Of a DNA stretch of 64,000 nucleotides, positions 19,762-54,612 are shown one piece after another. The number at the start of each line of letters is the position of its first letter. Position 1 is the stretch's first letter. The stretch is from Bacteroidota bacterium (lineage in GTDB: Bacteria; Bacteroidota; Bacteroidia; Palsa-965). Both the position numbers and the translations under genes were made by a program. The notes below the pieces were generated by a model that saw only the letters and a list, made by a program, of their open reading frames with translations, was not told the origin of the DNA and did no database searches. The DNA is taken from assembly GCA_016194975.1 (NCBI GenBank), contig JACQAM010000007.1:255947-319946 (forward strand). The letters are read 5' to 3'.

Positions 19762-19922
19762 GTACGAAAAACGAAAGTGCGGTGGTCATTACGATCCCGA
19801 TTTTAATCGGGAGAAGCAATCTTGCGCGAGGGTTTTCATAGCTATTTGTATTGCGTAACTTTTTCCCGAATTCATTCGGGATTTCGCATTACGTAGTTCG
19901 TGAGTTTCGTATTTCGTACTCC
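19760..19922. repeat. 163-bp nested imperfect palindrome with GAGTACGAAAWACGAAA ends, exactly filling the spacer between two convergent genes
   Basis: Left GAGTACGAAAAACGAAAGTG; right reverse-complement GGAGTACGAAATACGAAACTCACG. Inner inverted pairs CATTACGATCCCGA / TCGGGATTTCGCATTACG. Confidence 0.5.
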
Positions 19923-26849: not shown

Positions 26850-29800
26850 ATGAAAAACCTTACTTCTTTCAGGGGAACTGCATTATTAATTGCTACAGCA
26901 ATAAGTTCCTTATTATTTTCCCAGTCTCCGAGTTATGTTTGGGCTAAAGGTGTTGGCGGAACCGGAGCAGACCAGGGAATGGTAAATAAAACAGACGGCG
27001 CAGGAAATGTGATCGTGGCCGGTACATTCAGCGGCACAGCAGATTTTGATCCCGGTGCCGGGACTGCCAATCTTATTTCTGCCGGCAGTACTGATATTTT
27101 CATTGCGAAATATAATTCCACTGGAGATTACACCTGGGCTTTTGGCCTCGGATCGACAAATAGTGATTCGCCCGGTGATTTTGCAATTGATGGTTCCAAC
27201 AATATTGTAGTTACCGGTGGATTCATTGGAACGGTAGATTTTGATCCGGGTGCAGGTGTAGCCAATCTTACTTCTGCAAGTGGAAGCACACCTGATATTT
27301 TTATTGCGAAATATGATGCTTCAGGAAATTATGTTTGGGCAGAAAGGATAGGAAGCAGTACCGGTGGTGACCAGGGAAAAGGAATTGCTTTTGATTCGGG
27401 TGGAAATATTATCATCTCCGGATATTTTTTCGGTACGGCGGATTTTGATCCTGGTGCAGGAACAGCAAACCTGGTTTCTTTCGGATCGTTTGATGCCTGC
27501 CTCGCCAAATATGATGCTTCCGGAAATTATATCTGGGCAAAAAAAATGGGAGGAGTGAGTTCGGATCAGGGCGGTCGTATCGCTATTGATGGCAGCGGCA
27601 ATATAGACTTCACGGGCACTTTCAATGGAACTGCAGATTTTGATCCTTCTGCCGGGGTTGCCAATCTTACTTCAGCCGGAGCTACCGATATTTTTCTTGG
27701 TCAATATAATTCTTCAGGAAGTTATTTGTGGGCCGACAGGATCGGTGGAACTCTTGCTGATCAGTCGAGCGGAATTGGTACTGATGGAAGTAATAATGTT
27801 TTGTTGAACGGATATTTTAACGGAACAGCCGATTTTGATCCGGGTGCCGGAACTGCGAATCTTGTTTCTGCAGGAGGAAGTGATATTTTTCTTGGGAAAT
27901 ATTCTTCGGCCGGAGCTTATGTATGGGCTGGTAAAATGGGTGGAACACTCACTGACCAGGGATCCGGATTGGTGGTTGACGGTAGTGGTAATTCATATAC
28001 AACAGGTTTGTATACCGGCGCTGCAGATTTCGATCCTTCTGCTGCGAATGCAAATCTTATTTCTGCCGGCTCAACCGATGCGTTCATGGCCATGTATAAT
28101 TCTTCCGGTGCTTATGTTTCAGCAAAATCAGTTGGAGGAACCGGTGGCGATGCCGGAAATAATATTACTCTGAATTCTTCCGGCGATCTTATTGTAGCAG
28201 GATATTTTTCCGGCACTGCAGATTTTGATCCTTCTGCTGCAACAGCAAATCTTGTTTCTGCAGGAAGCACAGATATTTTTTACGGAGATTACCTGATGTG
28301 CACTTTTGCTACCGCTTCACTTTCTTCACAAACTAATGTGAGTTGTAATGGCGGAAGTGATGGAAGTGCAACAATAACTGCTGGTGGTGGAAGTAGTTTC
28401 ACTTATTCATGGGCTCCATCCGGTGGTACTGCGGCAACAGCTTCCGGATTGACCGCCGCAACTTACACATGCACCGTCACAAATCAATGCGGAAATACTG
28501 CAACGCAAACAGTGATCATTACTCAACCTATTGCAATTACTTCATCCATTTCTTCTCAAACCAACGTAACATGCAATGGAGGAAATGATGGTTCTGCAAC
28601 AGTGAGCGCTTCCGGCGGTACCGGCGCATTCACTTACAGTTGGTCACCAAGTGGTGGATCTGCTGCAACAGGAACTTCTCTTTCCGCGGGTACCTATACC
28701 TGTACGATCACTGACGCGAACGGATGCACGCATACGCAAACTGCAACTATTACTCAGCCATCAGGAATTCTTTCATCAATCTCATCACAAACCGACAATA
28801 CTTGTTTCGGCGGATCATCCGGATCCGCTACAGTTTCTGCTTCCGGCGGAACCGGTGCATTAACTTATTCCTGGTCACCAAGCGGTGGAACTGCTTCAAC
28901 TGCCAGCGGCCTTGCTGCAGCGACATACACATGCACGATCACCGACGCGAGCGGATGCACGCACACGCAAACTGTTACCATTACTCAACCAACAATTATC
29001 ACAACATCTGTTTCTTCACAGTCAAATGTAAGTTGTAACGGGGCGAATGACGGATCAGCTACTATTGCTGCTTCAGGTGGAACACCGGGTTATACTTATT
29101 CATGGGCACCGAGTGGCGGATCGGCTGCTTCTGCATCCGGACTTTCTCCGGGAACATACACGGTGACAGTGACCGATGCCAATGGTTGTGTTGTAACACA
29201 AACCCTCACTATTACTGAACCAGCCGTTCTCGTCGCTTCAACCGGTGGCAACGCTACAATCTGCGCCGGATCTTCAACAACACTTACAGCAGGATCGTCA
29301 GGCGGAACAGCAGTGGTAACTTTCAACTGGATGCCCGGTTCTCTCAGCGGAAGTTCTGTTTCTGTAAGTCCGGCCGCTACTACTACTTACACTGTTACTG
29401 CTACCGATGCTCATGGTTGCACCAGTACAGCAACATCAACCGTAACTGTAAATCCTTTGCCAACTGTAACCGCTTCTGCAAGTCCGGCAAGCATGTGTTC
29501 AGGAAATTCTTCTACGCTTACTTCAACCGGTGCAACAACCTATTCCTGGAATCCCGGATCGATGAGCGGTGCAAGTGTTTCAGTTTCTCCAGTGGCAACA
29601 ACAACTTATACTGTAACAGGAACAGATGGAAACGGATGTGTGAACACAGCTACAGTTACCGTCACGATAAATAATTGTGCGGGATCTATGCTTACTCCAA
29701 CATGGTGCGGGGCAACACTCACTTCAATGACGCAGAATTTTTACTGGACCGCAACATCGGGCGCAACCAATTATCACATTCGTGTACAGAATGCTTCATT

Positions 29801-30560
29801 GGGATACAGCCAGGTCGTTACAAGAACAAATAATCTTACCTATACCAATCTTGGTGTTTTCACAGGAATATTATACAGCACTACTTACAATGTAGATATC
29901 TCTGCTTACGTAGGGGGAGTTTGGGGAGCTTATGGAAATGTATGCACACTCACTACACCACCAACACCAACTTCACAATTGACGGGCGCTTCCTGCGGAG
30001 CAACCGGTGTAACGAATGCTACTAATCTTTATTACTCTGCTGTTACCACTGCAACCAATTACAAGATCCGCATGTCGAATGCCGGCCTCGGTTACAGCCA
30101 GATTTTAACGAGAGGAAATAATTCAACCTACTACCGGATCAGTTCATTCACCGGGCTTCTCACGAACACCACTTACAACGTAGATATTTCTGCATACGTC
30201 GCTGGTGTGTGGGGCGCTTATGGAACTGTTTGTACGATCACCACAGCATCGGCGCTCAGATATGCTGCGCCCGATGATCCGAATGGAAATTCCGATGCAG
30301 CTTCTTTCAGTGTCTATCCGAATCCTTCGCCCAACGGATCATTCAACGTAAGTCTGAATTCATTCGGTAACGACCAGGGCAGTGCTCAGATAGAAATGTT
30401 CGACCTGCTCGGGAATCTCGTTTATGCGCAATCTTATGCATACAGTTACGGCGATATTATCACAGTGGAATCTCCTGCAGAATTAGTTACCGGAATTTAT
30501 GTGATGCGTATAACTGCAAATGGAATTTCAGTGAATGAAAAAGTTTCCATCGAACGATAA
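26850..30560 (+). CDS. giant secreted T9SS cargo protein: SBBP beta-propeller repeats, SprB repeats, Ig/FN3-like domains and Por C-terminal sorting domain
   Basis: Signal peptide. About 9 repeats of the (TADFDPGAGxANLxSAGxxDIFxAKY…) ~50-aa SBBP motif. At least 5 SprB-type ~85-aa repeats (SQTNVxCNGGxDGSATxxASGGTxxYTYSWxPSGG…TYTCTVTD). C-terminal type-A sorting tail. Confidence 0.8.
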   Translation: MKNLTSFRGTALLIATAISSLLFSQSPSYVWAKGVGGTGADQGMVNKTDGAGNVIVAGTFSGTADFDPGAGTANLISAGSTDIFIAKYNSTGDYTWAFGLGSTNSDSPGDFAIDGSNNIVVTGGFIGTVDFDPGAGVANLTSASGSTPDIFIAKYDASGNYVWAERIGSSTGGDQGKGIAFDSGGNIIISGYFFGTADFDPGAGTANLVSFGSFDACLAKYDASGNYIWAKKMGGVSSDQGGRIAIDGSGNIDFTGTFNGTADFDPSAGVANLTSAGATDIFLGQYNSSGSYLWADRIGGTLADQSSGIGTDGSNNVLLNGYFNGTADFDPGAGTANLVSAGGSDIFLGKYSSAGAYVWAGKMGGTLTDQGSGLVVDGSGNSYTTGLYTGAADFDPSAANANLISAGSTDAFMAMYNSSGAYVSAKSVGGTGGDAGNNITLNSSGDLIVAGYFSGTADFDPSAATANLVSAGSTDIFYGDYLMCTFATASLSSQTNVSCNGGSDGSATITAGGGSSFTYSWAPSGGTAATASGLTAATYTCTVTNQCGNTATQTVIITQPIAITSSISSQTNVTCNGGNDGSATVSASGGTGAFTYSWSPSGGSAATGTSLSAGTYTCTITDANGCTHTQTATITQPSGILSSISSQTDNTCFGGSSGSATVSASGGTGALTYSWSPSGGTASTASGLAAATYTCTITDASGCTHTQTVTITQPTIITTSVSSQSNVSCNGANDGSATIAASGGTPGYTYSWAPSGGSAASASGLSPGTYTVTVTDANGCVVTQTLTITEPAVLVASTGGNATICAGSSTTLTAGSSGGTAVVTFNWMPGSLSGSSVSVSPAATTTYTVTATDAHGCTSTATSTVTVNPLPTVTASASPASMCSGNSSTLTSTGATTYSWNPGSMSGASVSVSPVATTTYTVTGTDGNGCVNTATVTVTINNCAGSMLTPTWCGATLTSMTQNFYWTATSGATNYHIRVQNASLGYSQVVTRTNNLTYTNLGVFTGILYSTTYNVDISAYVGGVWGAYGNVCTLTTPPTPTSQLTGASCGATGVTNATNLYYSAVTTATNYKIRMSNAGLGYSQILTRGNNSTYYRISSFTGLLTNTTYNVDISAYVAGVWGAYGTVCTITTASALRYAAPDDPNGNSDAASFSVYPNPSPNGSFNVSLNSFGNDQGSAQIEMFDLLGNLVYAQSYAYSYGDIITVESPAELVTGIYVMRITANGISVNEKVSIER

Positions 30561-30610: not shown

Positions 30611-30706
30611 ATGGAGATGTTTCAGCAGCATTTTTTTTCTCCTGCATTTATCCCTGCACGTATCTTTATTCCGATTTCAGCGTTATTCAATTATAACCAC
30701 AGATCC

Positions 30707-32173
30707 ATGCGGGGAAGCGGTATTATTTTTTTTCTGTCTTTCGTTTTCGTTCCGCTGACCGGAATTTCTGCGCCGGCATCGCAACAGGATTATAATCGTG
30801 CGCAATATTCTCTTTCCGTCAACCAGAAAAAAACAGAACGATTTTTTCCCGATACAATTTCAGGAACAGAATTTTTAAAACTGGAAACACCCTTCGCAAA
30901 AGCAGATTTCATTAATGAAAAAGAAATAACGAATCTGCGCGGACTTATCATCACCAAAGTTCAGCTCGTGTACACCACATTCGCCGTTTCTTCTTCGTTC
31001 AATCAGCAGCAACTGAATCTTCAGCGATTGAAAAATCTTTTCGCACTTGATCCCGGAATTTTTTCTTCTGCTCTTACCGAATGGCAACTCGTGGGACAAA
31101 CCGGCGCAACTTCACCTGAAACAGGAAGAACTTTTTTTCATGGGTTCGTCATCTATTATCGCCCGGCTTCTTCCGATGAAGAATTAAAAAACGAATTCAG
31201 TTATATCGAAAATATTTTCAGATCGGTTGATAAGAAAGGAAGTTCAGGAATTCATTCCGACAGCATTCGCACCGGCGATAAAATTCTCACACTTCCCGAT
31301 GGATCGAAGATCACGCTCGACCGGAATATCCCGGAAGACAGTTTGTGGAGATACCTCCGGCCTTCGTACAGGGGACTCAGCGTGATCGATGCGCGATATA
31401 ACAACAGGGAACATTCTTCCATTCGAGTAACTGAGCAGGCGCAAAACGGAAATAAACTCGTGCGCATCTGGAGCCTGGAAGATCATTATGCAAAACCGGA
31501 AGCAGAAAATGAATTCAAGCTGAATCCCAATGATCCCGATTCAGTTGTACTCTCCGCTTTTCACCGCAACAACTGGAAAAATACGATCATCGTTACCGAC
31601 GTCACATCGAGCATGTCGCCGTACACCGCTCAAACACTTTCCATCATTTCTTCATTGACATCGCAGAAAAAAATTGCGGCCTGTATTTTTTTCAACGACG
31701 GAGACGGAAAAAAAACAGAGAAAAAAAATATCGGAAGTACGGGAGGCATTTATATGTGTACTGCTGATTCTTTCGATACGATCCTCAACACCGCTCAACT
31801 TGCAATGAAAAACGGGAATGGCGGTGATATTCCGGAAAATGATCTTGAGGCAATAATTTACGGCGTGAATAAAATAAATTCGGTGAGCGACGTTGTGCTT
31901 ATCGCAGATAATTATTCTTCGCCGCGCGATCTCGAACTCGCCGATAAGATAGGCAGGCCGGTTCACATTATTCTCTGCGGTGCGCGCGTTGCAGTAAATC
32001 CTGATTATCTTTTTCTCGCGCGACAAACCGGCGGAAGCATTCACACACTGACGCAGGATATTTATGATCTCGATAAATTGAAAGACGGTGATGTGATCGT
32101 GATTGGCCGGCAACATTTTCTCCTGCACGGCGAACATTTTGTTTGCACCGATACATGGGATGATCCTAAGTAG
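30707..32173 (+). CDS. secreted von Willebrand factor type A (vWA) domain protein
   Basis: Signal peptide from the ATG at 30707 (MRGSGIIFFLSFVFVPLTG). MIDAS motif DVTSSMS (DxSxS) followed by a vWA-like alpha/beta segment. N-terminal half uncharacterised. Confidence 0.55.
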   Translation: MRGSGIIFFLSFVFVPLTGISAPASQQDYNRAQYSLSVNQKKTERFFPDTISGTEFLKLETPFAKADFINEKEITNLRGLIITKVQLVYTTFAVSSSFNQQQLNLQRLKNLFALDPGIFSSALTEWQLVGQTGATSPETGRTFFHGFVIYYRPASSDEELKNEFSYIENIFRSVDKKGSSGIHSDSIRTGDKILTLPDGSKITLDRNIPEDSLWRYLRPSYRGLSVIDARYNNREHSSIRVTEQAQNGNKLVRIWSLEDHYAKPEAENEFKLNPNDPDSVVLSAFHRNNWKNTIIVTDVTSSMSPYTAQTLSIISSLTSQKKIAACIFFNDGDGKKTEKKNIGSTGGIYMCTADSFDTILNTAQLAMKNGNGGDIPENDLEAIIYGVNKINSVSDVVLIADNYSSPRDLELADKIGRPVHIILCGARVAVNPDYLFLARQTGGSIHTLTQDIYDLDKLKDGDVIVIGRQHFLLHGEHFVCTDTWDDPK

Positions 32174-32301
32174 TACGAAATACGAAAATTCTACTAAAAG
32201 TTACTAAATACGAATTGATACGAAAAACGGAAACCTAGCCAAAATTCTGTTAGCGGAAAAGTTCATCTTCCATACAATAATTCCTTTCGTACTTTCGTAG
32301 G
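32171..32301. repeat. element bounded by inverted TACGAAA(T/G)ACGAAA repeats
   Basis: Left TAGTACGAAATACGAAAATT; right reverse-complement CCTACGAAAGTACGAAAGG. An internal TACGAATTGATACGAAAAACG lies between them. Confidence 0.45.
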
Positions 32302-32319
32302 TGTTTAGCATTTAGTAAC

Positions 32320-32751: not shown

Positions 32752-32948
32752 TTTTTTTTTCTAACTGCCGCTGCTTCCTTTTGCCGCTACAATTGATACA
32801 CTCTCTTTTTTACAAAGGAGATTTCAGTAGAACAAAAAATAATATTGCCACAGATCTTCACTGATTATTTTCACACCTGCCCGCCTTCCATTTCTGTGTT
32901 TTTAGAGATGCCCTAATTATTATCCTGACTTCCGCTTCTGACTTCTGC

Positions 32949-33902
32949 TTACTTTTTCCTCTTCACTTTTCCATTGAGCGAATTGCGTTCCCAGAAAAAT
33001 CCATCATGATATCCCTGTATGGAATTATCTTTTTTGATCTTTAAAATTCTTTTTTCTCCCCAGCAGCAATACTCGGCGTTCATTTCGATGCCGCAATAAT
33101 GCCGGCCGAGTTTTTTTGCAACAACGGAAGTCGTTCCTGAACCAACGAACGGATCGAAAACAATTCCGTTTTCCGGGCAACTTGCGAGAATGAGTTTAGC
33201 AATGAGTTTTTCCGGTTTCTGCGTCGGATGATCGGTATTCTCCGGCATGGACCAGTACGGAACGGTGATATCGTCCCAGAAATTAGAAGGGAAAGTCATT
33301 CTGAAATTTCCGTGTTCGGTTTCTTCCCATCCTTTCGGTTGCCCATTCACTTTGTAAGGCGCAATGACTTTGCGTTTCAGTTTTACTGCATCGACATCGA
33401 AAAAATATTTTTTTTCATTCCTCACACCGAACCAGATATCTTCCATTCCGTTCTTCCAGTTCTTCGAAGCGCCGCGGCCTTTTTCACGCTGCCACGTAAT
33501 CCGATTAAGCACAAAAAGATTTTCCGACATCACCTGTTGCAACATCATCGTATTTTTCCAGTCACCGCAGAGATAAAGTGAGCCGTTTGGTTTCAAACAT
33601 TTCACAATGCGCGGGAACCAGGAGCGGAGATAACTGAGATAATTTTCGTCGGAAGAATTGCGGAAACGATAACCGTGAAAATCTTTATTGAGATTGTAAG
33701 GTGGATCAACGATAATAAGATCGGCAAAACGCTCAGGAAGATGATTGACCACGCTGAGCAAGTCGGCGCAAATAGTTTTATCGGAAATATTTTTTTTTGT
33801 GAGTATCGTTCCGTTATTGAAAAAAAGAATTCTCTTCCTGAGTTTTTTTTTCTCGGGAGGAAGCAAAGTGAGCGTACGGTTTCGCGGTGCTCTTTTTTTC
33901 AT
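32949..33902 (-). CDS. DNA methyltransferase (N6-adenine/N4-cytosine, beta-class; ParB-less orphan)
   Basis: Catalytic motif IV IIVDPPYNL and the C-terminal SAM-binding motif I FDPFVGSGTT (beta-class order). No adjacent restriction endonuclease recognisable. Start moved to the ATG at 33902. Confidence 0.85.
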   Translation of the reverse strand: MKKRAPRNRTLTLLPPEKKKLRKRILFFNNGTILTKKNISDKTICADLLSVVNHLPERFADLIIVDPPYNLNKDFHGYRFRNSSDENYLSYLRSWFPRIVKCLKPNGSLYLCGDWKNTMMLQQVMSENLFVLNRITWQREKGRGASKNWKNGMEDIWFGVRNEKKYFFDVDAVKLKRKVIAPYKVNGQPKGWEETEHGNFRMTFPSNFWDDITVPYWSMPENTDHPTQKPEKLIAKLILASCPENGIVFDPFVGSGTTSVVAKKLGRHYCGIEMNAEYCCWGEKRILKIKKDNSIQGYHDGFFWERNSLNGKVKRKK

Positions 33903-34005
33903 TGCGGAAGTTTTCGCCCCGCAAAAATAAGAGCATTGTGACAGGAATGACTTTTCTATTGAAGAATTATCGGAACTTATCTTGCAAATTGGCATTTCAC
34001 CACTA

Positions 34006-34106
34006 AAATCCCAAATGAAAAACCCCAAATTCCAAACAAGGAGTATTCTTCGTCGATTTTCGGAATGCTGGATTTCTCTATTTGGAATTTTTGATTTGGA
34101 ATTTTC
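34006..34106. repeat. CCAAATTCCAAA / TTTGGAATTTTTGATTTGG intergenic element
   Basis: The 12-mer CCAAATTCCAAA and a GATTTGG-type tail are shared with 54528-54612. Similar GATTTG units lie at 8506-8588. Confidence 0.4.
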
Positions 34107-34109
34107 AGG

Positions 34110-35666
34110 TTACCTGTTTTCTTCCCGGTTCCCGTTATTTTTCTTCATCACCTCTGCAAATCGTTCCCCTGTAATGCGGCTCTGCATCCATACAGTAAAA
34201 TCAAAATAATCAAGGATGCGTTTTTCCGCAGGCGATTCCGCAAGTTTCAGCATTTCGTCGCGCAAAGGAATAAGGGCGTTCTTCAATTCATTTTCGGTGT
34301 GGATACCCGGAAGATCTTTCCGCAGAAAACGAAGAAGAAGCATCTCGATCCCGGAAATATTTTTCTTTTTTACAAGATACCGGTAAGCCGACCTCACAAA
34401 ATATTCCATGGACGATTCCGTTCCGAGTTCAAAATGAAGAATGAGATTCAGCAAATGCGAAATGCCGGTGATGTCCTGCCGTGCTTCCGATCTTTCATTC
34501 AGAATACGATTAATCCATTGCAAGGATCTCCGGAATTCCCCGGCGCCGAAATAAGTGTAGGCAAAACTGTAGCGATAACTTGCCTGTGTGCTCGCCGGAA
34601 TTTCTTCACCCATCGATTCGAATGGTTGCGTGATCTGCTCCACTAATTTTTTTCCTTCTGCGAATTCTCCGGAGTGAATGTAATAATGCAACATGGAACT
34701 GCATGCACCGAGCAATCTCACCTGCACCGTATGATTTGATTTCCATCGTTCATCTTCCAGCATGATGAGAACTTTTGAAAAAGTAGAATGCAGGTCGCGG
34801 AAATGTTGTGTGTATTCGCAAGTGACAATGAAGTTGGCCAGCGCTGAAGCATACAATTGCGGTGCGAGTGCGATCTGTACAGGATTTTTTTCGATGTGAA
34901 GGATCAGTGCTCTTCGCTCGGAGAAGGTGGAATTCCAATCGCTCTTCATCATGTGATACATTCCCATCAGGTTGTGATAAAAATAATATTCCTGGTAAGC
35001 ATCCGGTTTCGCGATCTCACCTTTGCGCAATGGTTCTATTATTTTTTCCAGCGAACGAATGTCTTCTTCCTTCGACAACATTCCTTTCGACACGAACAAA
35101 CGATGAATGCGGTGAAGTAAAGTCCGATAACGATTAATGGTACGTACCGTTTTCAAAACGCGTTCACCTTCTTCGAGCAATTCTTCCACTTCATTTTCTT
35201 CTCTCGGAATATTCAGCGTTTCATTCAGCACACGTTCTTCCCAGGAGATCAATTCATACAGCAACACATGCCGCTGAAGTTCTTTCGCTTTTCTTTTTGT
35301 TTTGCGGATGAGTTTGAGGCATTGCTTCATCAAACGTTTTTCATACAGCACTTCGATCTCGCTGAGAATATTCCGCATGCGCATCTCTTCGCCCGAGTAG
35401 GCGTGCGCAACGCGCAGGGATTCGATCACCAGGTCGTGAAGATATTTTTTCAGATTTGCGAAACGTGCGGAAGTGAGTTGTGGAAATTTTTTACGAATCT
35501 TTTTTTCGTCATAAATTTTCTGCGAAAGCAAAGCGTTGAAAAGCTGCACATAAATTTTTCCACCCGCACGCTCATGCCCTGACACGAATGCGTGAAATTT
35601 TTTGCGTTCAGAGACATTCAGCGAACGCACCAATTCATGAAGATCGGAGGTAGGAATACGGGACAT
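34110..35666 (-). CDS. hypothetical 518-aa all-alpha (TPR-like) protein
   Basis: No signal peptide, no Walker motifs and no nuclease motif recognised. Composition suggests repeated helical hairpins. Sits immediately upstream of the DNA methyltransferase on the same strand. Confidence 0.45.
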   Translation of the reverse strand: MSRIPTSDLHELVRSLNVSERKKFHAFVSGHERAGGKIYVQLFNALLSQKIYDEKKIRKKFPQLTSARFANLKKYLHDLVIESLRVAHAYSGEEMRMRNILSEIEVLYEKRLMKQCLKLIRKTKRKAKELQRHVLLYELISWEERVLNETLNIPREENEVEELLEEGERVLKTVRTINRYRTLLHRIHRLFVSKGMLSKEEDIRSLEKIIEPLRKGEIAKPDAYQEYYFYHNLMGMYHMMKSDWNSTFSERRALILHIEKNPVQIALAPQLYASALANFIVTCEYTQHFRDLHSTFSKVLIMLEDERWKSNHTVQVRLLGACSSMLHYYIHSGEFAEGKKLVEQITQPFESMGEEIPASTQASYRYSFAYTYFGAGEFRRSLQWINRILNERSEARQDITGISHLLNLILHFELGTESSMEYFVRSAYRYLVKKKNISGIEMLLLRFLRKDLPGIHTENELKNALIPLRDEMLKLAESPAEKRILDYFDFTVWMQSRITGERFAEVMKKNNGNREENR

Positions 35667-35872
35667 TTTTCGGAATATTTCAGTTCAGAATGATCGATTT
35701 GTTTTATTATAAATAATTAGTTTTAGTCATTTATTTTCAATGCTTTATATAATTATTATTTCATTTGAATTCAAATATAAAAGAAATTATGAATTGGACG
35801 CACATATAGGTCGTTCTACATTTGATTCATCAACCCGTTTATTTTTTTTCCTAAGAACCAAAACCGAAACTC

Positions 35873-36721
35873 ATGAAAAAAATCTACTCACTCACTTCGA
35901 TCGGGATGCTGCTTTTCTGCGCAAATATTTCTGCGCAATGGTGCACACCGACAACTGCGATCCCTTATGATGCGAATATGCCGGGTGTAACGCATTACAT
36001 CTGCAACACGATCAACCGCACTTCTGCTGCCTGCGAAAATTATCCGAACAATAACTATGTTCTCGCAACAAACACTACGACGCTTACACGCGGCTCAGCA
36101 TACAACGTGTCGATCACTTTCACGATTGACGCAAGTATTTGTCCCGATATGAATCTTCGTGTGTGGATCGATTACAACCAGGACGGACAATTGGATGATC
36201 CGGGCGAAACGGTGGTCACCGCGAATAATCAGTTGCCGGGAACTTACAGTGCATCTATCACTATTCCTGCAACAGCAACACTCGGAAGTACGCGTATGCG
36301 CGTGACTGCAAAAATGACTTCGAATGGCGGGCACACACTTCCAACTCCGTGCGACAACCCTGCAGATCCGCTGGGCTATCACGGAGAATTTGAAGATTAC
36401 AATGTGACGATCAGCGCACCAACGGGAATCGATCAGGTTAATGATCTTATCTCTTCGCTGAATGCTGTTCCGAATCCGGGAACGATAGACAACACTGTGA
36501 TCCATTATTCGCTTGCGAATGCATCACCGGTGAATATTACGATGACCAACATTGCCGGGCAAACAATAACCCTCGCTGCCAGTGAAAATCCGCAGGTAGC
36601 CGGCGATCACTACATCTCCCTAACGGATGTGGGCACAACGATCCCTTCAGGAATATATCTCGTGTCCCTGAACGCCGGAAACCAAAGGCAGACTATGCGG
36701 ATTGTTATTCTCAACGAATAA
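35873..36721 (+). CDS. secreted GEVED-domain protein with T9SS C-terminal sorting domain
   Basis: Signal peptide. Motif GEFEDYNVTI (GEVED-type) at the end of the N-terminal domain. C-terminal Por tail (…VPNPGT…GIYLVSLNAGNQRQTMRIVILNE). Confidence 0.7.
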   Translation: MKKIYSLTSIGMLLFCANISAQWCTPTTAIPYDANMPGVTHYICNTINRTSAACENYPNNNYVLATNTTTLTRGSAYNVSITFTIDASICPDMNLRVWIDYNQDGQLDDPGETVVTANNQLPGTYSASITIPATATLGSTRMRVTAKMTSNGGHTLPTPCDNPADPLGYHGEFEDYNVTISAPTGIDQVNDLISSLNAVPNPGTIDNTVIHYSLANASPVNITMTNIAGQTITLAASENPQVAGDHYISLTDVGTTIPSGIYLVSLNAGNQRQTMRIVILNE

Positions 36722-38170: not shown

Positions 38171-38245
38171 AGTACGAATTACTGTTGTACGAATTACGAA
38201 TTTCTCGAAGTACGAAATACGAATAAGCGAATTTACGAAATGGGA
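38171..38245. repeat. direct repeats of GTACGAAT/TACGAAA units in the upstream region of the desaturase gene
   Basis: AGTACGAATTAC…GTACGAATTACGAATTT…GTACGAAATACGAATAAGCGAATTTACGAAATG. Confidence 0.45.
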
Positions 38246-38296
38246 AAGTGAAATGGTAAATCAATTCCACAGTACACCGCTTTTTATCCTATCCTG

Positions 38297-44370: not shown

Positions 44371-46968
44371 ATGAAAAAATTTTTACTCGTTGCAGCACTT
44401 CTTTCCGTAAGTAGTCTCGCGAAATCGCAGGCGCTTGCTGCTTCCTCTTCTCAAACCGATGTCACCTGCTTCGGCGCGTGTAACGGATCTGCAACTGTCA
44501 TTGCATCCGGAGGAACTTCTCCATACTCTTACAACTGGTCGCCGAGCGGCGGTACCGCGGCAACTGCGAGTGCGCTCTGCGCCGGAAATTATACTTGCAC
44601 AGTTACTGATGCCGTTTTCGCTTCGGTGAATGTTACGGTCAACATCACACAACCCACTCCAATTACTATCAGTCCTTCGCAGCAGAATGTTTCATGCAAT
44701 GGAGGAAACGATGGCCATGCACTCGCAACGGTAAGCGGCGGCGCGGGATTTTTCACTTACTCATGGTCGCCCGTCGGTGGAAATGCACCGATTGCTAATT
44801 CCCTGACTGCGGGAATTTATACCGTCACTGTCACGGATGCAAATTCATGTACAGCTTCCCAAACATTTCAGATCACAGAACCTCCCGCACTGAGCGCAAC
44901 AAATGCTATTGTAAATGTAAGTTGCTTTGGCGGGTCAGACGGAAGTGCCGTGGTAACTGTCAATGGCGGAACTCCCGGTTATATGTATTCCTGGGCGCCG
45001 GGCGGATACACCACTGATTTTGCAAACGGGCTCAGCGAAAATCTTTATCTCGTTTCCATCACGGATCTCAATGGTTGTTTTCTCCGTGACACGGTCAACA
45101 TAAGCGCTCCTTCGCAATTAACGAGTTCAATTACAGGAACAGATGTTACCTGTTTCAATTCCAATGACGGAACAGCAATGATCACAGTCAATGGCGGCAC
45201 CGGGCCTTTCAATTATTCCTGGGCGCCGAATGGTGGATCCGGGAATACACAAACGGGGCTTTCAGCAGCCACCTATACGTGTAATGTTACAGATGCGCAT
45301 GGTTGTACTACAACACAAACCATCGATATCACGGAACCGGCGCCGCTTTCTTCGATTGATTCGCAAACCGACGTAAGTTGTTTCGGTGGCAGCAACGGAT
45401 CTGCATCAGTGAGTGTAAGCGGCGGCAATGGATCCTATTCTTACAACTGGTCGCCCTCAGGAGGAAATTCTTCTATGGCGGGCGCACTCATGGCCGGAAG
45501 TTATTCCTGTACCATCACCGATATCAATGGATGCATGCTTACCGAAACTTTCAGTTTAACAGAACCATCGCTTATCACTGTTGTAGGTTCGCAGTTCGAT
45601 GCGTCATGCAGTGGCGGCAATAACGGCAGTGCGACTGTAAATGCAAGTGGAGGAACGGGGCCGCTTACTTATTCCTGGACAAGCGGCGGAACGGCCGCAA
45701 CAGAAACTTCGCTGTCGGCAGGATCTTACACCTGCACAGTTACAGATATGAATGGTTGTGTTGCAACACAAACCTTCGTTATCACGGAACCAGCTGCGAT
45801 GACTTCGAACGCGATGATCACCGGTGTCACCTGTTATAATTTCAACAACGGAAGCATCACGCTCAATATGAATGGCGGAGCGGCTCCTTATAATTATTAC
45901 TGGTCCGATTTTTCCAATAATGCTTATGATTCGATGCTCGTTGCCGGAGTTTACACACTCACCGTGCAGGATGCAAACAGTTGCGTTTTCAATGATACAT
46001 TCACTGTTTCTCAACCTGCACCGCTTTCATTTGTGGTAACGCAAACTGACATTTCTTGTCACGGTAATAACGATGGAACTGCTTCCGTAACTCCATCCGG
46101 TGGAACCGGCCCCTATACTTATTTGTGGAATACCGGGAATACTTCTTCATCACTCACCGATCTTTCACAGGGAATTTACACTTGTGTTGTTACCGATTCG
46201 AACGGATGCGTTGATTCAGCACAGGCATCTATTTATGATCCGGGACAATTGGTAGCATTTGTACAGGCGGTGTTGAATCCAACAACATGTGGCGCTTCTG
46301 ATGGCGGAATTAATATTGCAATGACCGGTGGAACACAACCTTTCATTTACCAATGGAGTAACGGCGATACGATCGAAGATCTTTACAATATTGCTGCCGG
46401 TGTTTATTCACTCACTGTAACTGATGCGCATGGTTGCGTTGGAACTGCACTTGCAACACTCAGCGATCCGAATGCTCCTGTTGTTGCAATGACGCTGCCG
46501 GAAACTTTCATTTGCATTGACGATGATACACTCCTGATTTCCGGTATTCCTGCAGGAGGAACTTTCACCGGCAATGGAATGAATGGAAGTGTTTTCGATC
46601 CATCTCTCGCCGGGTTGGGTCAAAGTGTGATAGCGTATGCGTACACGGATACGAACGGATGTTTGGGCGCGACCACTGACACGATCACTGTGGATCCGTG
46701 TACAGGAATACAGGTGAATGCCGATTATTCTCAATGGAATATTTTCCCGAATCCTACGACCGGTGATGTTTTTATTACTGCTTACGTGCCAACAGAAGAA
46801 CCTGTGCATGTTCAGCTTTTTTCTTCAGAAGGAAAATTGATCCGCGATGTGGAATGGAATACAAAAGATGAAATGCATTTCGGAATACAGGACGAGGCAA
46901 GCGGCATTTATCTTGTGAGAATTATTTCTGCAGATTCTGAAAAATCATTCCGCATCATCAGGCAATAA
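44371..46968 (+). CDS. secreted T9SS cargo protein with about 8 SprB repeats and Por C-terminal sorting domain
   Basis: Signal peptide. Repeats (SQTDVTCFGxxNGSATVxASGGTxPYSYNWSPSGGTAAT…TYTCTVTD…). C-terminal module shared with the 47130 gene. Por tail. Confidence 0.8.
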   Translation: MKKFLLVAALLSVSSLAKSQALAASSSQTDVTCFGACNGSATVIASGGTSPYSYNWSPSGGTAATASALCAGNYTCTVTDAVFASVNVTVNITQPTPITISPSQQNVSCNGGNDGHALATVSGGAGFFTYSWSPVGGNAPIANSLTAGIYTVTVTDANSCTASQTFQITEPPALSATNAIVNVSCFGGSDGSAVVTVNGGTPGYMYSWAPGGYTTDFANGLSENLYLVSITDLNGCFLRDTVNISAPSQLTSSITGTDVTCFNSNDGTAMITVNGGTGPFNYSWAPNGGSGNTQTGLSAATYTCNVTDAHGCTTTQTIDITEPAPLSSIDSQTDVSCFGGSNGSASVSVSGGNGSYSYNWSPSGGNSSMAGALMAGSYSCTITDINGCMLTETFSLTEPSLITVVGSQFDASCSGGNNGSATVNASGGTGPLTYSWTSGGTAATETSLSAGSYTCTVTDMNGCVATQTFVITEPAAMTSNAMITGVTCYNFNNGSITLNMNGGAAPYNYYWSDFSNNAYDSMLVAGVYTLTVQDANSCVFNDTFTVSQPAPLSFVVTQTDISCHGNNDGTASVTPSGGTGPYTYLWNTGNTSSSLTDLSQGIYTCVVTDSNGCVDSAQASIYDPGQLVAFVQAVLNPTTCGASDGGINIAMTGGTQPFIYQWSNGDTIEDLYNIAAGVYSLTVTDAHGCVGTALATLSDPNAPVVAMTLPETFICIDDDTLLISGIPAGGTFTGNGMNGSVFDPSLAGLGQSVIAYAYTDTNGCLGATTDTITVDPCTGIQVNADYSQWNIFPNPTTGDVFITAYVPTEEPVHVQLFSSEGKLIRDVEWNTKDEMHFGIQDEASGIYLVRIISADSEKSFRIIRQ

Positions 46969-47129: not shown

Positions 47130-50003
47130 ATGAAATCAAAATTCTACATGAAATGGAATGCATTGCATGCACGTGTTGCGGCAATGAGTTTTGCGATCCT
47201 GCTGTTGTTCAATCTTCATTCAGATGCGCAAACTGTTTACACATTTACCAGCGCGGCTGCCACTGGCGTTAATGGCCCTACGCAGGCGCAGGTGAACACA
47301 GCTTATACTTCAACAACACTTGCCGGAGCTGTTACTGTTGTAAGTAATGGAATTCAGCAATGGACAGTACCTGCAACAGGAAATTATACCATTGAAGGAT
47401 ACGGAGCGCAGGGAGGAAACGGAACCGGATTTAGCCTGATCGGTGGAAGAGGCGCTTACATCAAAGGAACATTTAATCTCACTGCTGGAACTGTTCTCAA
47501 TATTGTTGTAGGACAGATCGGCGCTGATGCAAGTTCAGGAAGTTCTGGTGGCGGCGGAACTTTTATTTACACAGGTGCAATTGGCGGCGCAGGATTAATG
47601 ATCGCTGCCGGTGGTGGTGGCGGAACAGGACACAACGTTGCGAATGGTGGAAACGGAAGTGCAACGAGTACTCCCGTTAGCAGCGGAACAGGAAGAGGAG
47701 ACGGCGGATACCAGGGATTAGGAATGGGTGGAAATGGTGGATCAGGTGTTGGAGGATATTCTGCAACGTGGAATAATGCTGCAGCTGGTGGTACAGGTTG
47801 GGGAAGTAGTGGACTCGCAGGATTTTTCCAGGGCGATGTTACTTATCAGAGTAATCCGGGAACAAGATTCACCGGAGGATATCATGGAACTGTGAATACA
47901 GATTTTCCCGGCGGATTTGGTGGAGGTGGTGGTTGCGGTGGTTGGGGATATTCTGGTGGTGGTGGCGGTGGATACACTGGTGGCGGTGGTGGAGATGACT
48001 GGGACGGAAATTCCGGGCCGTGCTCTTGCGGCCATGGCGGTGGACAAGGTGGTGGAAGTTTCAATTCAGGAACAAGTCAAACCAATACTGCCGGTGTAAG
48101 AAGCGGGGACGGAACTCTGATCATCACTAACATTTATTCAGCTACAACTGCAGTTTCATCACCAATCACTTGCAATGGCGCATCGAATGGTTCTCTTACT
48201 GTAACGGTGACCGGCGGAACGAGTCCTTATACTTATTCATGGGCGCCAACAGGAGGAACTGCTGCAACGGCTAGTGGATTATCTGCGGGAACTTATACCG
48301 TAACCGTAACTGATGCTACTTCCGCAGTTACTACAAGTACATTCAATCTTACACAACCGTCAGTAATCTCTACTTCTGTTTCTTCGCAAACGAACGTTTC
48401 CTGCAATGGCGGATCGAACGGAGTGATCAACGTTTTTGTTACCGGTGGAACACCCGGCTACGCTTACTCGTGGGCGCCATTGGGGGGAAGTATGGCAACG
48501 GCATCCGGCCTTCCTGCAGGAACCTATACCTGCACGGTCACCGATGCGAATGGTTGTACTGCAACACAACCTGCCGTCATAACACAACCAACGGCAATTA
48601 CAACTTCTGTTTCGGCTCAAATGAACATTACCTGCAACGGAGGCAACAACGGATCTGCAACCGTCACTCCTTCCGGAGGAACTCCGGCCTATTCTTTTTC
48701 CTGGTCACCATCGGGAGGAACCTCTGCATCGGCTTCCAGCCTGCCGGTAGGGTCATATACCTGCACGGTCAGCGATGCCAATGGTTGTACTGTAACACAA
48801 ACCGTGATGATCACAGAACCTACGGCTATCGTTACTTCGGTTTCTTCACAGACGAATGCAACCTGCAATGGAAACATGGACGGATCTGCAACAGTTGCTG
48901 CTTCGGGCGGAACCGGCGCTTATACTTACATGTGGAGTCCGACCGGTGGTTCTACGGCTATGGCAACGGGACTTGGTGCCGGAAGTTATTCCTGCACGAT
49001 CACGGATGCCAATGGTTGTACTGCAACACAAACACTCAGCATCACAGCACCGATGACGGTCACGTCTTCCGTTTCCAGCCAGATGGATGCTACATGCAAC
49101 GGAGGAAGCGACGGATCAGCTACGGTAATGGCTTCCGGAGGAACCGGGCCTTACACTTACGCGTGGAGTCCAATGGGAGGAAATGCTGCAATGGCAGCAG
49201 GACTTTCAGCCGGAACTTATTCCTGCTTGGTCACGGATATGAATGGTTGTACTACAACACAAACCGTTATGATCGCTGAACCTTCGCCGATCATTGTAAC
49301 AACAATGGGAACTGATCCTACCGGATGCGGCGCAAATGACGGGTCTATAACCATGTCTGTGAACGGCGGAACACCCGGATATACTTTCATGTGGAGCAAC
49401 AGTGCGACGACACAGAATATTTCCGGACTCACCGCAGGAACCTACACCTGCATCATTACCGACATGAACGGATGCAGCGCGAATGGAAGTGCAACACTGG
49501 TGGATCCGAATCCTCCAACGGTGACTTTGAATATTCCGACTTCGACTATTTGCTTCGATGATGCCACACTCGCATTGACCGGTGAATCTCCTTCGGGCGG
49601 AACATTCAGCGGAAGTGGTGTAACCGGAAATTCATTCGATCCTTCGGTTGCGGGAAACGGAACACAAGTGATCACTTATATGTTCACTGCCACCAATGGA
49701 TGCTCCGGTACAGCAATGGATTCTATAGTTGTTGATCCTTGTACAGGAATCCGGAATGCAAATTCCAATTCAACATGGAATCTTTATCCGAACCCTACGA
49801 CGGGCGAAATTTTCATCACAGGTTCATTGCACCAGGAAGTCCGTGTACAGTGTTTCACCTCTGATGGAAGAATGATCCGTGATTTCATGATGATCCCGAA
49901 TGATAATTCGAAATTCAGTTTGAGCAATGAAGCGAGCGGGCTTTACCTCGTGCGCATCATCTCTTCTGAAAAAACAGAATCGTTCAGGATCACCAAACAA
50001 TAA
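47130..50003 (+). CDS. secreted T9SS cargo protein: N-terminal glycine-rich domain, about 8 SprB repeats, Por C-terminal sorting domain
   Basis: Signal peptide. About 250-aa Gly-rich region (…GAQGGNGTGFSLIGGRGAYIKGTF…GGGGGYTGGGGGDDWDGNSGPCSCGHGGGQGGG…), then SprB repeats and a tail paralogous to the 44371 gene. Confidence 0.8.
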   Translation: MKSKFYMKWNALHARVAAMSFAILLLFNLHSDAQTVYTFTSAAATGVNGPTQAQVNTAYTSTTLAGAVTVVSNGIQQWTVPATGNYTIEGYGAQGGNGTGFSLIGGRGAYIKGTFNLTAGTVLNIVVGQIGADASSGSSGGGGTFIYTGAIGGAGLMIAAGGGGGTGHNVANGGNGSATSTPVSSGTGRGDGGYQGLGMGGNGGSGVGGYSATWNNAAAGGTGWGSSGLAGFFQGDVTYQSNPGTRFTGGYHGTVNTDFPGGFGGGGGCGGWGYSGGGGGGYTGGGGGDDWDGNSGPCSCGHGGGQGGGSFNSGTSQTNTAGVRSGDGTLIITNIYSATTAVSSPITCNGASNGSLTVTVTGGTSPYTYSWAPTGGTAATASGLSAGTYTVTVTDATSAVTTSTFNLTQPSVISTSVSSQTNVSCNGGSNGVINVFVTGGTPGYAYSWAPLGGSMATASGLPAGTYTCTVTDANGCTATQPAVITQPTAITTSVSAQMNITCNGGNNGSATVTPSGGTPAYSFSWSPSGGTSASASSLPVGSYTCTVSDANGCTVTQTVMITEPTAIVTSVSSQTNATCNGNMDGSATVAASGGTGAYTYMWSPTGGSTAMATGLGAGSYSCTITDANGCTATQTLSITAPMTVTSSVSSQMDATCNGGSDGSATVMASGGTGPYTYAWSPMGGNAAMAAGLSAGTYSCLVTDMNGCTTTQTVMIAEPSPIIVTTMGTDPTGCGANDGSITMSVNGGTPGYTFMWSNSATTQNISGLTAGTYTCIITDMNGCSANGSATLVDPNPPTVTLNIPTSTICFDDATLALTGESPSGGTFSGSGVTGNSFDPSVAGNGTQVITYMFTATNGCSGTAMDSIVVDPCTGIRNANSNSTWNLYPNPTTGEIFITGSLHQEVRVQCFTSDGRMIRDFMMIPNDNSKFSLSNEASGLYLVRIISSEKTESFRITKQ

Positions 50004-52100: not shown

Positions 52101-54497
52101 ATGAACGAACAACTTATTTATCTGGTTCCCGCATTGGGAATTCTCGGACTCATTTTCATGATCCTCAAATCGGCGTGGGTGAGTAAACAGGATGCGGGAA
52201 ACGATCGCATGAAAGAAATTGCAGGATATGTTTCAGAAGGAGCGATGGCATTCCTGAAAGCTGAATATCGCATTCTCGCAATTTATGTCGTACTCGCCGG
52301 CAGCGCACTCGGTTGGTTGAGCCAAGAGGTAACTACTTCTCACATTCTTATCGTCGCTGCATTTGTTTGCGGATGTATTTTTTCTGCACTCGCCGGATTT
52401 TTCGGAATGCGAATCGCTACAAAAGCAAACGTTCGCACAACGCAGGCGGCGAGAACTTCTCTTGCAAAAGCACTGAGAGTTTCTTTCACCGGCGGAACAG
52501 TGATGGGACTCGGTGTTGCCGGACTCGCAGTTCTCGGACTAAGTATGCTCTTCATTATTTTTTTCCAGTTTTTCATGCAGAGTTCACTTGCGAATGGCGG
52601 ATATGAAAAAATGACGCAGGTACTTGAAGTGCTCGCAGGATTTTCTGTGGGTGCAGAATCGATCGCGCTTTTCGCTCGTGTGGGCGGTGGAATTTATACC
52701 AAAGCCGCAGATGTTGGAGCCGATCTCGTTGGAAAAGTAGAGGCAGGAATTCCGGAAGATGATCCGCGTAATCCCGCAACCATTGCAGATAACGTTGGTG
52801 ATAATGTGGGTGACGTTGCAGGAATGGGCGCCGATCTTTTCGGATCGTACGTCGCAACAGTTCTCGCGTCGATGGTGCTGGGCAATTATGTGATTCGCGA
52901 TATGGTTGCAGCGAATGGAAATTATGATGTGATCCCGTTCAAAGGACTCGGCCCCATTTTTCTTCCACTCATGATCTCTGCTGCAGGATTATTCGCTTCC
53001 ATCATCTCCAGTTATTTTGTGAAGGTTGCCGACAATGCAAAAACAGATACACGTACCGTACAACGGGCACTCAATATCGGAAACTGGTCTTCGATTCTTC
53101 TCTCGCTCGTAGCCGCTTATTTTCTCATTCAGCAATGTTTGCCTGCAACAATGAACATCAGTGTTTTCAACGCGGGTGAATTCGGAAAAGCAACTACAAC
53201 AAGTATGCATATTTTCTATGCGGTGATGATCGGAATGTTTGTAGGTGGTGCAATTTCATTTATCACCGAATATTTTACCGGCCTCGGCGGGCGTCCTGTA
53301 AGAGGCATCGTCGAAAAATCTGCGACAGGTGCAGCAACAAATATTATCGCCGGGCTCGGAACAGGAATGTTATCTACTGCACTTCCTGTAATTCTTTTCG
53401 CAGGTGCGATCTGGGGCGCGTATTCACTCGCAGGATTTTACGGAGTAGGAATTGCAGCGTGCGCGATGATGGCGAACACCGCAATGCAATTGGCGATCGA
53501 TGCATTCGGTCCCATTGCAGACAACGCCGGCGGAATTGCAGAGATGAGTGAACTTCCTGCAGAGGTTCGAGAGAAAACAGACGTACTCGATTCAGTTGGA
53601 AATACAACTGCTGCTATCGGGAAAGGATTTGCAATTGCATCCGCAGCGCTTACTGCACTCGCACTTTTCGCTGCTTACGTAACATTCACCGGCATCAACG
53701 GAATAAATATTTTCGATGCAAAAGTTCTCGCTGCGTTATTTCTCGGCGGAATGATCCCGGTTGTTTTCTCCGCGCTCGCTATGAATTCGGTTGGTAAAGC
53801 AGCAATGGATATGGTGAATGAAGTACGCCGGCAGTTCCGCGAAATACCCGGCATCATGGAAGGAAAAGGAAAACCTGAATATGCAAAGTGTGTTGCTATT
53901 TCCACGAAAGCTGCATTGCGCCAGATGTTATTGCCGGGCGTGATCACGATCGTAACTCCAATCATTGTTGGATTGGTGATGGGCGCAGAAGCGCTCGGTT
54001 CTTATATGGCAGGCGTAACCGTGAGCGGTGTACTCTGGGCAATTTTCCAGAACAATGCCGGTGGTGCGTGGGACAATGCAAAAAAATCTTTTGAAAAAGG
54101 TGCGGAGATAGAAGTGAACGGCAAGAAAGAAATTTTTTATAAAAAATCTGATCCGCATAAAGCGGCTGTCGTTGGTGATACGGTTGGTGATCCTTTCAAA
54201 GATACTTCCGGCCCGTCGATGAATATTCTCATCAAGCTTTCCTGTCTCGTTGGACTCATGCTTGCACCACTTCTCGCCGGACACAATGCTACCGCAATGA
54301 ACAACATGTGCAAAGGAAATTCCTGCTGCACCCAGATGATGAATATGAAATGCGATCTGAATAAATGCATGCACATGACGCAGCAACAATGCGCGCAGTA
54401 TTGCGACTCGATGAAATGTACGCCCGAAGAAAAAGAAATGTGTTTGAAACATGCAATGGGTGGAAGCTGCTACGATTCGACAAAGTGCAATAAGTAA
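52101..54497 (+). CDS. hppA: membrane-bound (K+-stimulated) H+/Na+-translocating pyrophosphatase with an unusual Cys/Met-rich C-terminal extension
   Basis: Multi-transmembrane protein with the M-PPase conserved segments (…DNVGDNVGD…, …GDTVGDPFKDTSGPSMNILIKL…). Length 798 aa. Confidence 0.9.
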   Translation: MNEQLIYLVPALGILGLIFMILKSAWVSKQDAGNDRMKEIAGYVSEGAMAFLKAEYRILAIYVVLAGSALGWLSQEVTTSHILIVAAFVCGCIFSALAGFFGMRIATKANVRTTQAARTSLAKALRVSFTGGTVMGLGVAGLAVLGLSMLFIIFFQFFMQSSLANGGYEKMTQVLEVLAGFSVGAESIALFARVGGGIYTKAADVGADLVGKVEAGIPEDDPRNPATIADNVGDNVGDVAGMGADLFGSYVATVLASMVLGNYVIRDMVAANGNYDVIPFKGLGPIFLPLMISAAGLFASIISSYFVKVADNAKTDTRTVQRALNIGNWSSILLSLVAAYFLIQQCLPATMNISVFNAGEFGKATTTSMHIFYAVMIGMFVGGAISFITEYFTGLGGRPVRGIVEKSATGAATNIIAGLGTGMLSTALPVILFAGAIWGAYSLAGFYGVGIAACAMMANTAMQLAIDAFGPIADNAGGIAEMSELPAEVREKTDVLDSVGNTTAAIGKGFAIASAALTALALFAAYVTFTGINGINIFDAKVLAALFLGGMIPVVFSALAMNSVGKAAMDMVNEVRRQFREIPGIMEGKGKPEYAKCVAISTKAALRQMLLPGVITIVTPIIVGLVMGAEALGSYMAGVTVSGVLWAIFQNNAGGAWDNAKKSFEKGAEIEVNGKKEIFYKKSDPHKAAVVGDTVGDPFKDTSGPSMNILIKLSCLVGLMLAPLLAGHNATAMNNMCKGNSCCTQMMNMKCDLNKCMHMTQQQCAQYCDSMKCTPEEKEMCLKHAMGGSCYDSTKCNK

Positions 54498-54527
54498 ATA
54501 GTTATCTCAAAATTGAGATTCAATCAT

Positions 54528-54612
54528 GAAATTCCAAAAAAAGTAAAGCTCCAAATTCCAAAAGACGGCACAGTTAACCAATGAACTTTGGGATTTTCGA
54601 TTTGTGATTTTC
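54528..54612. repeat. CCAAATTCCAAA / TTTGGGATTTTCGATTTG intergenic element (second copy)
   Basis: Shares CCAAATTCCAAA and a GATTTG tail with 34006-34106. Confidence 0.4.

Follow-up and report, generated by a model that had tools for sequence, protein, structure and literature searches.

A solitary beta-class DNA methyltransferase gene adjoins a gene for a putative RusR-like regulator that is divergent from a type IX secretion cargo gene in a Bacteroidota genome

The locus analysed here lies in a 64,000-nt stretch of contig JACQAM010000007.1 (positions 255,947 to 319,946, forward strand) of the metagenome-assembled Bacteroidota bacterium genome GCA_016194975.1; this whole stretch is hereafter designated the window, and coordinates refer to it. 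Two adjacent genes on the minus strand are at issue. The first encodes a solitary beta-class amino-methyltransferase of 317 amino acids (32949–33902), the second a predicted cytoplasmic, all-alpha protein of 518 amino acids (34110–35666), a distant member of the BT2802/RusR family and a putative one-component regulator. They are separated by 207 nt (33903–34109), one less than the 208 nt given in an original prediction made from the DNA alone, which had suggested an orphan epigenetic regulator or a two-gene defence or regulatory module. On the opposite side of the 518-aa gene, an AT-rich intergenic region of 206 nt with 25% G+C (35667–35872) leads to a divergent gene on the plus strand (35873–36721) encoding a secreted protein of 282 amino acids with a GEVED domain (PF20009) and a type IX C-terminal sorting domain (PF18962). 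We hold it to be probable that the two co-oriented genes are unrelated transcription units, one encoding a solitary methyltransferase derived from a restriction-modification system and the other a RusR-like regulator of the divergent gene, a cargo gene of the type IX secretion system (T9SS).

The open reading frame of the methyltransferase comprises 359 codons (32949–34028, minus strand). The ATG at 33902 was taken as the start codon because homologues (313–350 aa) align from residue 1 or 2 of the 317-aa polypeptide that it specifies. A search against Pfam placed this polypeptide in PF01555 (N6_N4_Mtase; 154.6 bits against a cut-off of 26.7, E 5.1e-45), and it matched the Type II methyltransferase models of PADLOC with E-values reaching 1.6e-67 (MTase_II PDLC03371). 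As had been predicted, it is of the beta class, the permutation being recognisable because motif IV (DPPY, residues 66–69) precedes motif I (FDPFVGSGTT, residues 249–258). The DPPY sequence favours N6-adenine over N4-cytosine, and since it is present here the enzyme is probably specific for N6-adenine. The best relative among PDB entries was M.BceJIV (8urk, E 3.6e-39), followed by MboIIA, CcrM and RsrI. M.BceJIV (GTWWAC) is, like YhdJ, a solitary derivative of the Type II restriction-modification methyltransferases and an orphan regulator of Burkholderia cenocepacia, with which the protein described here shares the PF01555 fold, the position of DPPY ahead of FxGxG and a similar size. Both of the equivalog models searched were matched well below their cut-offs, that of CcrM (NCBIfam NF050803) with 114.7 bits against 830 and that of YhdJ/PRK11524 (NF008572) with 154.8 bits against 292, which sets the enzyme apart from both. 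Searches of PDB, NCBIfam, Pfam and plasmid sequences, made both with the methyltransferase and with the nuclease that accompanies its relatives, found no named enzyme near enough to infer a recognition sequence.

More than 8000 homologues of the methyltransferase were found, the best of them 66–73% identical and distributed across Bacteroidia, Treponemataceae, Ignavibacteriae and Proteobacteria. In sequence comparison this scattered spread is the sporadic pattern of restriction-modification genes and not that of a lineage core gene. The G+C content of the gene (42.5%) is close to that of the window (44%). The original prediction was to fall if the helical protein had a clear housekeeping homologue and the methyltransferase were a CcrM-like core gene of its lineage. 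One half of this came about in a modified form, in that the helical protein does have a named family, BT2802/RusR, which is a regulator and not a housekeeping enzyme; the other half did not, the methyltransferase being no CcrM-like core gene.

The 518-aa protein (NCBI locus tag HY064_05850) had been described as a large helical protein of unrecognised family, and the description stands at the level of Pfam, PADLOC (no family at E ≤ 0.01) and the sequences in PDB, none of which gave a match. In NCBIfam, residues 6–507 aligned with positions 4–502 of the 502-position model NF058569 (BT_2802_fam, 'BT2802 family ribose utilization protein') with an E-value of 1.2e-45. A structure predicted with AlphaFold2 was entirely helical (pLDDT 93, pTM 0.87); in this model the protein has a small N-terminal helical domain followed by a TPR-like superhelix. 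The predicted TPR-like fold may resemble that of the RRNPP quorum-sensing receptors Rap, PlcR and NprR and of domain III of MalT; generic TPR scaffolds such as LGN and Pins score equally well or higher. A Foldseek search with the N-terminal domain gave nothing significant, and the assignment of a helix-turn-helix or of DNA binding to this domain is tentative. Neither a signal peptide nor a transmembrane segment was predicted. A word-indexed search returned 59 homologues, the best 43% identical, and a profile built from 56 of these retrieved 12,277 sequences at E ≤ 0.001, including 6,936 at E ≤ 1e-30, from 1.84 billion cluster representatives. The RusR-like proteins are thus a very large family for which Pfam holds no model.

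BT2802, also named RusR, is encoded upstream of the ribose utilisation (rus) locus of Bacteroides thetaiotaomicron, and its deletion abolishes growth on ribose and leaves about 10% of rus induction; the authors of that study consider it a candidate regulator, in which DNA-binding motifs are predicted and which is not homologous to the regulators known from polysaccharide utilisation loci (10.1101/574913). Transposon mutants of BT2802 show a fitness of −4.3 on ribose (PMC8121099), and a later regulon study treats the protein as the regulator of the ribose utilisation locus (PMC12596196). The 518-aa protein resembles RusR in its full-length match to the family model, its length (about 510 aa in RusR), its all-alpha character and the proximity of genes for cell-surface or exported proteins. 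It differs in setting: RusR lies by a polysaccharide utilisation locus, whereas the 518-aa gene lies by a divergent T9SS cargo gene, and no ribokinase, SusC/SusD or permease genes were found among the scanned window genes between 17.5 and 47 kb or in the top 25 neighbour families of related loci. By analogy with RusR, the 518-aa protein would most likely act as a one-component, signal-sensing transcription factor. From the RRNPP receptors (Rap, NprR, PlcR) and the MalT sensor it is distinguished by a lack of sequence similarity and by an N-terminal domain that is not a helix-turn-helix of the XRE type; it differs further in that its host is a diderm member of the Bacteroidota and that no cognate peptide gene was identified. 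As a separate observation, a 34-aa open reading frame was called at two related loci (L002, 5064–5168; L003, 4979–5083) in the interval that separates the RusR-like gene from its giant divergent neighbour, which deserves mention given the possible likeness in fold to peptide receptors of the Rap, NprR and PlcR type.

The assignment of the divergent gene was clear for the GEVED domain (PF20009, E 2.2e-20) and borderline for the sorting domain, as the match to Por_Secre_tail (PF18962, E 9e-6) reached 26.3 bits, just below the 27-bit cut-off. A divergent GEVED gene also accompanies the homologue closest to the 518-aa protein (43% identity), and the product of that gene is 56% identical to its counterpart in the window. 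The arrangement was surveyed in 71 RusR-like loci, for which homologues were looked up by exact sequence (four) or taken from a genome scan (66) together with flanks of about ±6–8 kb. A divergent upstream gene was present in 38 of about 61 distinct loci, at a distance of 94–413 nt. Among 37 such neighbours, including that of the window, 26 encoded a Por_Secre_tail domain and four a CHU_C domain, both of them T9SS sorting domains, and the N-terminal parts of these cargo proteins were mutually unrelated (FG-GAP, SprB, BNR, peptidase M1, GEVED and others). With a sorting-domain profile of our own, which reproduced these counts, 26 of 35 divergent neighbours scored positive; the background among the remaining genes of these loci that code for 200 aa or more was 20 of 279 (odds ratio 37, Fisher p 3e-18). 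The metagenome-assembled genome nzgw129 (JAHEYN01) alone contained at least 13 RusR-like paralogues (L011, L013, L014, L017, L020, L021, L022, L023, L026, L065, L066, L075 and L076), each with a large divergent gene 113–329 nt upstream, and 11 of the 12 that could be assessed carried a sorting domain.

The divergent intergenic region of the window contains candidate -7 promoter boxes for both genes, at 35772–35779 on the minus strand for the 518-aa gene and at 35817–35824 on the plus strand for the GEVED gene, and a perfect 14-bp palindrome, ATTTGAATTCAAAT (35763–35776), overlaps the box on the regulator side. The putative 518-aa regulator would most likely target the divergent cargo gene through this shared region. 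We tentatively extend the idea to the clade and regard it as possible that each member is dedicated to one divergent T9SS cargo gene, forming 'regulator-cargo cassettes' of which a genome may hold 13 or more.

A different role for the 518-aa protein, as a cytoplasmic TPR scaffold or chaperone that acts post-translationally on T9SS cargo or on the secretion machinery, appears unlikely. RusR, the only member that has been studied, is required for transcript induction, and the divergent layout across an AT-rich intergenic region of 100–330 nt is typical of a regulator and its target. The structural diversity of the cargo (from FG-GAP and SprB to BNR, peptidase M1 and GEVED proteins) also fits gene-specific regulators better than a common chaperone, and type IX cargo folds in the periplasm, whereas the 518-aa protein lacks a signal peptide.

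Two distant RusR-like subfamilies, from Crocinitomicaceae and Flavobacteriales, showed no divergent cargo gene and had other conserved contexts (loci L031, L036, L037, L039, L040, L069, L071 and L074, and L051, L055, L057, L058, L062 and L064). In one of them the RusR-like gene is preceded by a co-oriented gene of about 325 aa and followed by a convergent one of about 369 aa; in the other, a convergent gene of 345 aa follows. Among downstream neighbours overall, DHBP_synthase with GTP_cyclohydro2 (seven members) and AIRS (six members) were frequent and probably represent these distant-subfamily genes. Such contexts may reflect vertical synteny rather than functional linkage.

The association of the 518-aa gene with the methyltransferase gene had no counterpart elsewhere. 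A tblastn search (E ≤ 1e-3) found a methyltransferase or nuclease homologue within about ±6–8 kb of the RusR-like gene in none of the 71 loci, and the four homologues found by exact sequence lookup, which are part of this set, had no methyltransferase neighbour. In the reciprocal comparison, no homologue of the helical protein was present within ±4 kb of the methyltransferase gene at any of the 80 closest metagenomic methyltransferase loci. The presence or absence of the pair across strains had been proposed as a check on the module; in the related loci surveyed here the pair was absent throughout.

The spacer between the two genes had been credited with a repeat element, and this is correct in part. 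The exact 12-mer CCAAATTCCAAA is present only once in the spacer (34025–34036), with a second copy at 54551–54562; what does repeat is the 10-mer AAATTCCAAA, which the spacer contains three times, as a direct pair on the minus strand (14 nt apart) and as a single inverted copy, with two more copies at 54529 and 54553. The five copies in the window compare with 1.19 expected, and one of 100 shuffled sequences reached five. Units of AAATTCCAAA and TTTGGAATTT make up an imperfect long inverted repeat (34013–34104, minus strand), which starts a few bases past the stop codon of the 518-aa gene and was predicted to fold into an RNA hairpin of −31.6 kcal/mol (z −2.46; four of 200 shuffles fold equally well). 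No canonical intrinsic terminator was found between the two genes, and the spacer gave no credible match in Rfam. The spacer motif is real and local to this genome. It was also considered as part of a cassette that moves with the methyltransferase gene, and this was rejected as the motif is missing upstream of 78 methyltransferase homologues.

A second element of related composition occupies window positions 54520–54612, where two AAATTCCAAA units are followed by complements of the TTTGGGATTTT type. It lies directly after the stop codon of a 798-aa gene (52101–54497), in the same orientation relative to the upstream gene as the element in the spacer. Only about 55% of it can be aligned to the spacer element and it folds no better than shuffled sequences, and the case for treating the two as one family is weak.

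The consensus of the -7 promoter box in Bacteroidetes is TAnnTTTG. A candidate box that matches this pattern, TATTTTTG, lies at 33922–33929 on the minus strand, 20 nt upstream of the ATG of the methyltransferase. Together with the boxes upstream of the 518-aa gene and the GEVED gene it would fit three separate promoters, as far as pattern matches can suggest. The methyltransferase gene may therefore be transcribed from a promoter of its own within the spacer; the separation of the transcription units is suggested because the hairpin follows directly on the stop codon of the 518-aa gene and the box lies so close to the methyltransferase start.

The same spacer could be read as a lineage-specific link, in which the RusR-like protein would control the methyltransferase, either alone or together with the cargo gene, by read-through or by binding to AAATTCCAAA, and would make methylation dependent on a signal. 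The excess of AAATTCCAAA, with three of its five copies in the spacer, the common strand of the two genes and the lack of a canonical terminator would accommodate such a link. We nevertheless consider it quite improbable: AAATTCCAAA does not occur in the divergent intergenic region of the regulator itself, its recurrence at 54.5 kb after an unrelated gene is more like a dispersed 3′-end element, it is not kept upstream of the 78 methyltransferase homologues, and the adjacency of the two genes was seen in no other genome among the 71 and 80 loci.

The closest relatives of the methyltransferase point to a different partner, as they belong to classic methyltransferase–nuclease operons of Type II restriction-modification systems; the copy described here differs in having no nuclease in the window. 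In relatives with 73% and 70% identity, a gene for a protein of 384–386 aa starts 4–6 nt downstream of the methyltransferase gene. These two proteins are 62% identical to each other and match the PADLOC model REase_II PDLC03461 with E-values of 1e-145 and 1e-139. A third relative, from Bacteroides sp. 214, is solitary, and so is an unannotated methyltransferase with 67% identity in Prevotella sp. oral taxon 299. When the 80 metagenomic loci were classified, 30 were too short to tell; of the 50 classifiable ones, 18 had a gene for this nuclease, always immediately downstream of the methyltransferase gene, and 32 had none although the sequence available downstream extended for 1300 nt or more. 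At one locus (L079, methyltransferase 71% identical) only an 86-aa fragment with 39.5% identity to the nuclease was left (L079 5004–5171), which appears to be a restriction gene caught in the process of decay. In a neighbour-joining tree, the methyltransferase of the window was sister to the nuclease-paired copy of L006, and paired and solitary states were interspersed; the nuclease has therefore been lost repeatedly, or the methyltransferase has been transferred on its own.

As predicted, the methyltransferase of the window lacks a nuclease partner as far as the 64 kb extend. When the PDLC03461-type nucleases of L006 and L008 served as tblastn queries against the whole window, nothing above noise was obtained (best E 0.5), nor was there a remnant downstream of the methyltransferase gene, where 197 nt of non-coding DNA are followed by a convergent gene for a PaaI-type thioesterase. 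With no adjacent nuclease gene, the locus does not constitute a complete Type II restriction-modification system. Directly at the stop codon of the methyltransferase, where its relatives carry the nuclease gene, lies a tandem 13-nt direct repeat (CTGACTTCCGCTT / CTGACTTCTGCTT; window 32925–32950). The most economical history, and on these comparisons the most likely one, is that of a restriction-modification lineage from which the nuclease was lost, with the methyltransferase as the one survivor. The enzyme may then methylate a short target motif throughout the genome without accompanying restriction.

Alternatively, the methyltransferase could belong to an active restriction-modification system, with the nuclease gene located beyond the window. 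We give this little credence: although the window is part of a 405-kb contig and the closest relative is paired with a nuclease, the strict position of the nuclease gene in paired relatives is taken here by non-coding DNA and the thioesterase gene, and solitary copies are common (32 of 50). A dedicated two-gene defence or epigenetic module with the helical protein as sensor or specificity subunit, as in the original prediction, is very improbable indeed, for adjacency, co-orientation and the capacity in principle of a repeat scaffold to bind a partner are outweighed by the contradicting synteny (0 of 71 and 0 of 80), the lack of a PADLOC match for the helical protein, the pairing of the methyltransferase clade with a Type II nuclease instead, the hairpin and separate -7 box match between the genes, and the conserved partner of the helical protein on its opposite side.

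Several observations weigh against our preferred reading of a solitary methyltransferase beside an unrelated, RusR-like regulator of the cargo gene. The 518-aa protein scored 156.4 bits against the curated cut-off of 550 for NF058569 and so falls outside strict membership of the family, and DNA binding by RusR family members stands as a prediction. Downstream neighbours of RusR-like genes are also somewhat enriched in sorting domains (11 of 54 of the Por_Secre_tail type, and three CHU_C), and part of the pairing signal may stem from clustering in cargo-rich regions; the 13 loci contributed by a single metagenome-assembled genome mean that the synteny counts are not fully independent. As to a shared operator, k-mer enrichment over 38 divergent intergenic regions returned only AT-rich words, and a 14-bp palindrome like that in the window arose in 298 of 5000 shuffles (6%) and could be due to chance. 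On the side of the methyltransferase, the nuclease search covered 64 kb of the 405-kb contig, and a nuclease gene could lie elsewhere in the genome.

The wider surroundings bear little sign of the accessory locus flanked by repeat elements that had been suspected. The two supposed flanking repeats (32171–32301 and 34006–34106) are mutually unrelated, and the former belongs to a dispersed family and brackets no island. Clusters of a GTACGAAATACGAAA-like unit were found at 19762–19919, 32173–32232 (with inverted units near 32290–32319) and 38187–38247, mostly just past stop codons, and at 19.8 kb two copies of this type form an inverted pair flanking a convergent intergenic region. Allowing up to three mismatches, GTACGAAATACGAAA-like units gave 12 matches against 2.9 expected, a number reached in none of 100 shuffles. 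They appear to form a repeat family dispersed over the intergenic regions of this genome, at least three of which contain it. The region showed no anomaly in G+C content, the genes scanned included no integrase or transposase, and the neighbours are housekeeping genes and T9SS cargo, with genes for aconitase, isocitrate dehydrogenase, DPP-IV and a MacB-type protein nearby.

Of the roughly 47 genes in the window, seven terminate in a T9SS sorting domain of type A according to our own profile, with which Pfam scans agree for three, and several have SprB repeats. Besides the GEVED gene (35873–36721, plus strand), they are located at 1821–5111 on the minus strand and at 26850–30560, 44371–46968, 47130–50003, 60262–61920 and 61928–63313 on the plus strand. 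The genome is unusually rich in secretion cargo. A 520-aa protein (30611–32173, plus strand) has an N-terminal hydrophobic stretch, matched no Pfam, NCBIfam or PADLOC family and gave faint hints of a von Willebrand factor A domain (E 0.03–0.08).

The locus thus holds no new defence or epigenetic module. Its methyltransferase half is ordinary, a solitary methyltransferase beside an unrelated gene being what the decay of restriction-modification systems commonly leaves behind. It also illustrates that adjacency and co-orientation are poor evidence for a module, since the partner that informs on the helical protein was found on its other side, beyond the coordinates of the original prediction. 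The pairing of regulator and cargo is a modest new lead and apparently a pattern not described before. We know of little that has been described on the regulation of individual T9SS cargo genes; a limited literature search on this subject found nothing relevant, and what a search on the GEVED domain returned was unrelated to regulation. If they exist as proposed, regulator-cargo cassettes would add a hitherto undescribed level of control over type IX secretion substrates, specific to the individual cargo, and would resemble the hybrid two-component systems and extracytoplasmic function (ECF) sigma factors that are paired with polysaccharide utilisation loci in Bacteroides. The strong and specific tie of a RusR-related family to divergent cargo genes offers a testable lead for cultivable Bacteroidota.

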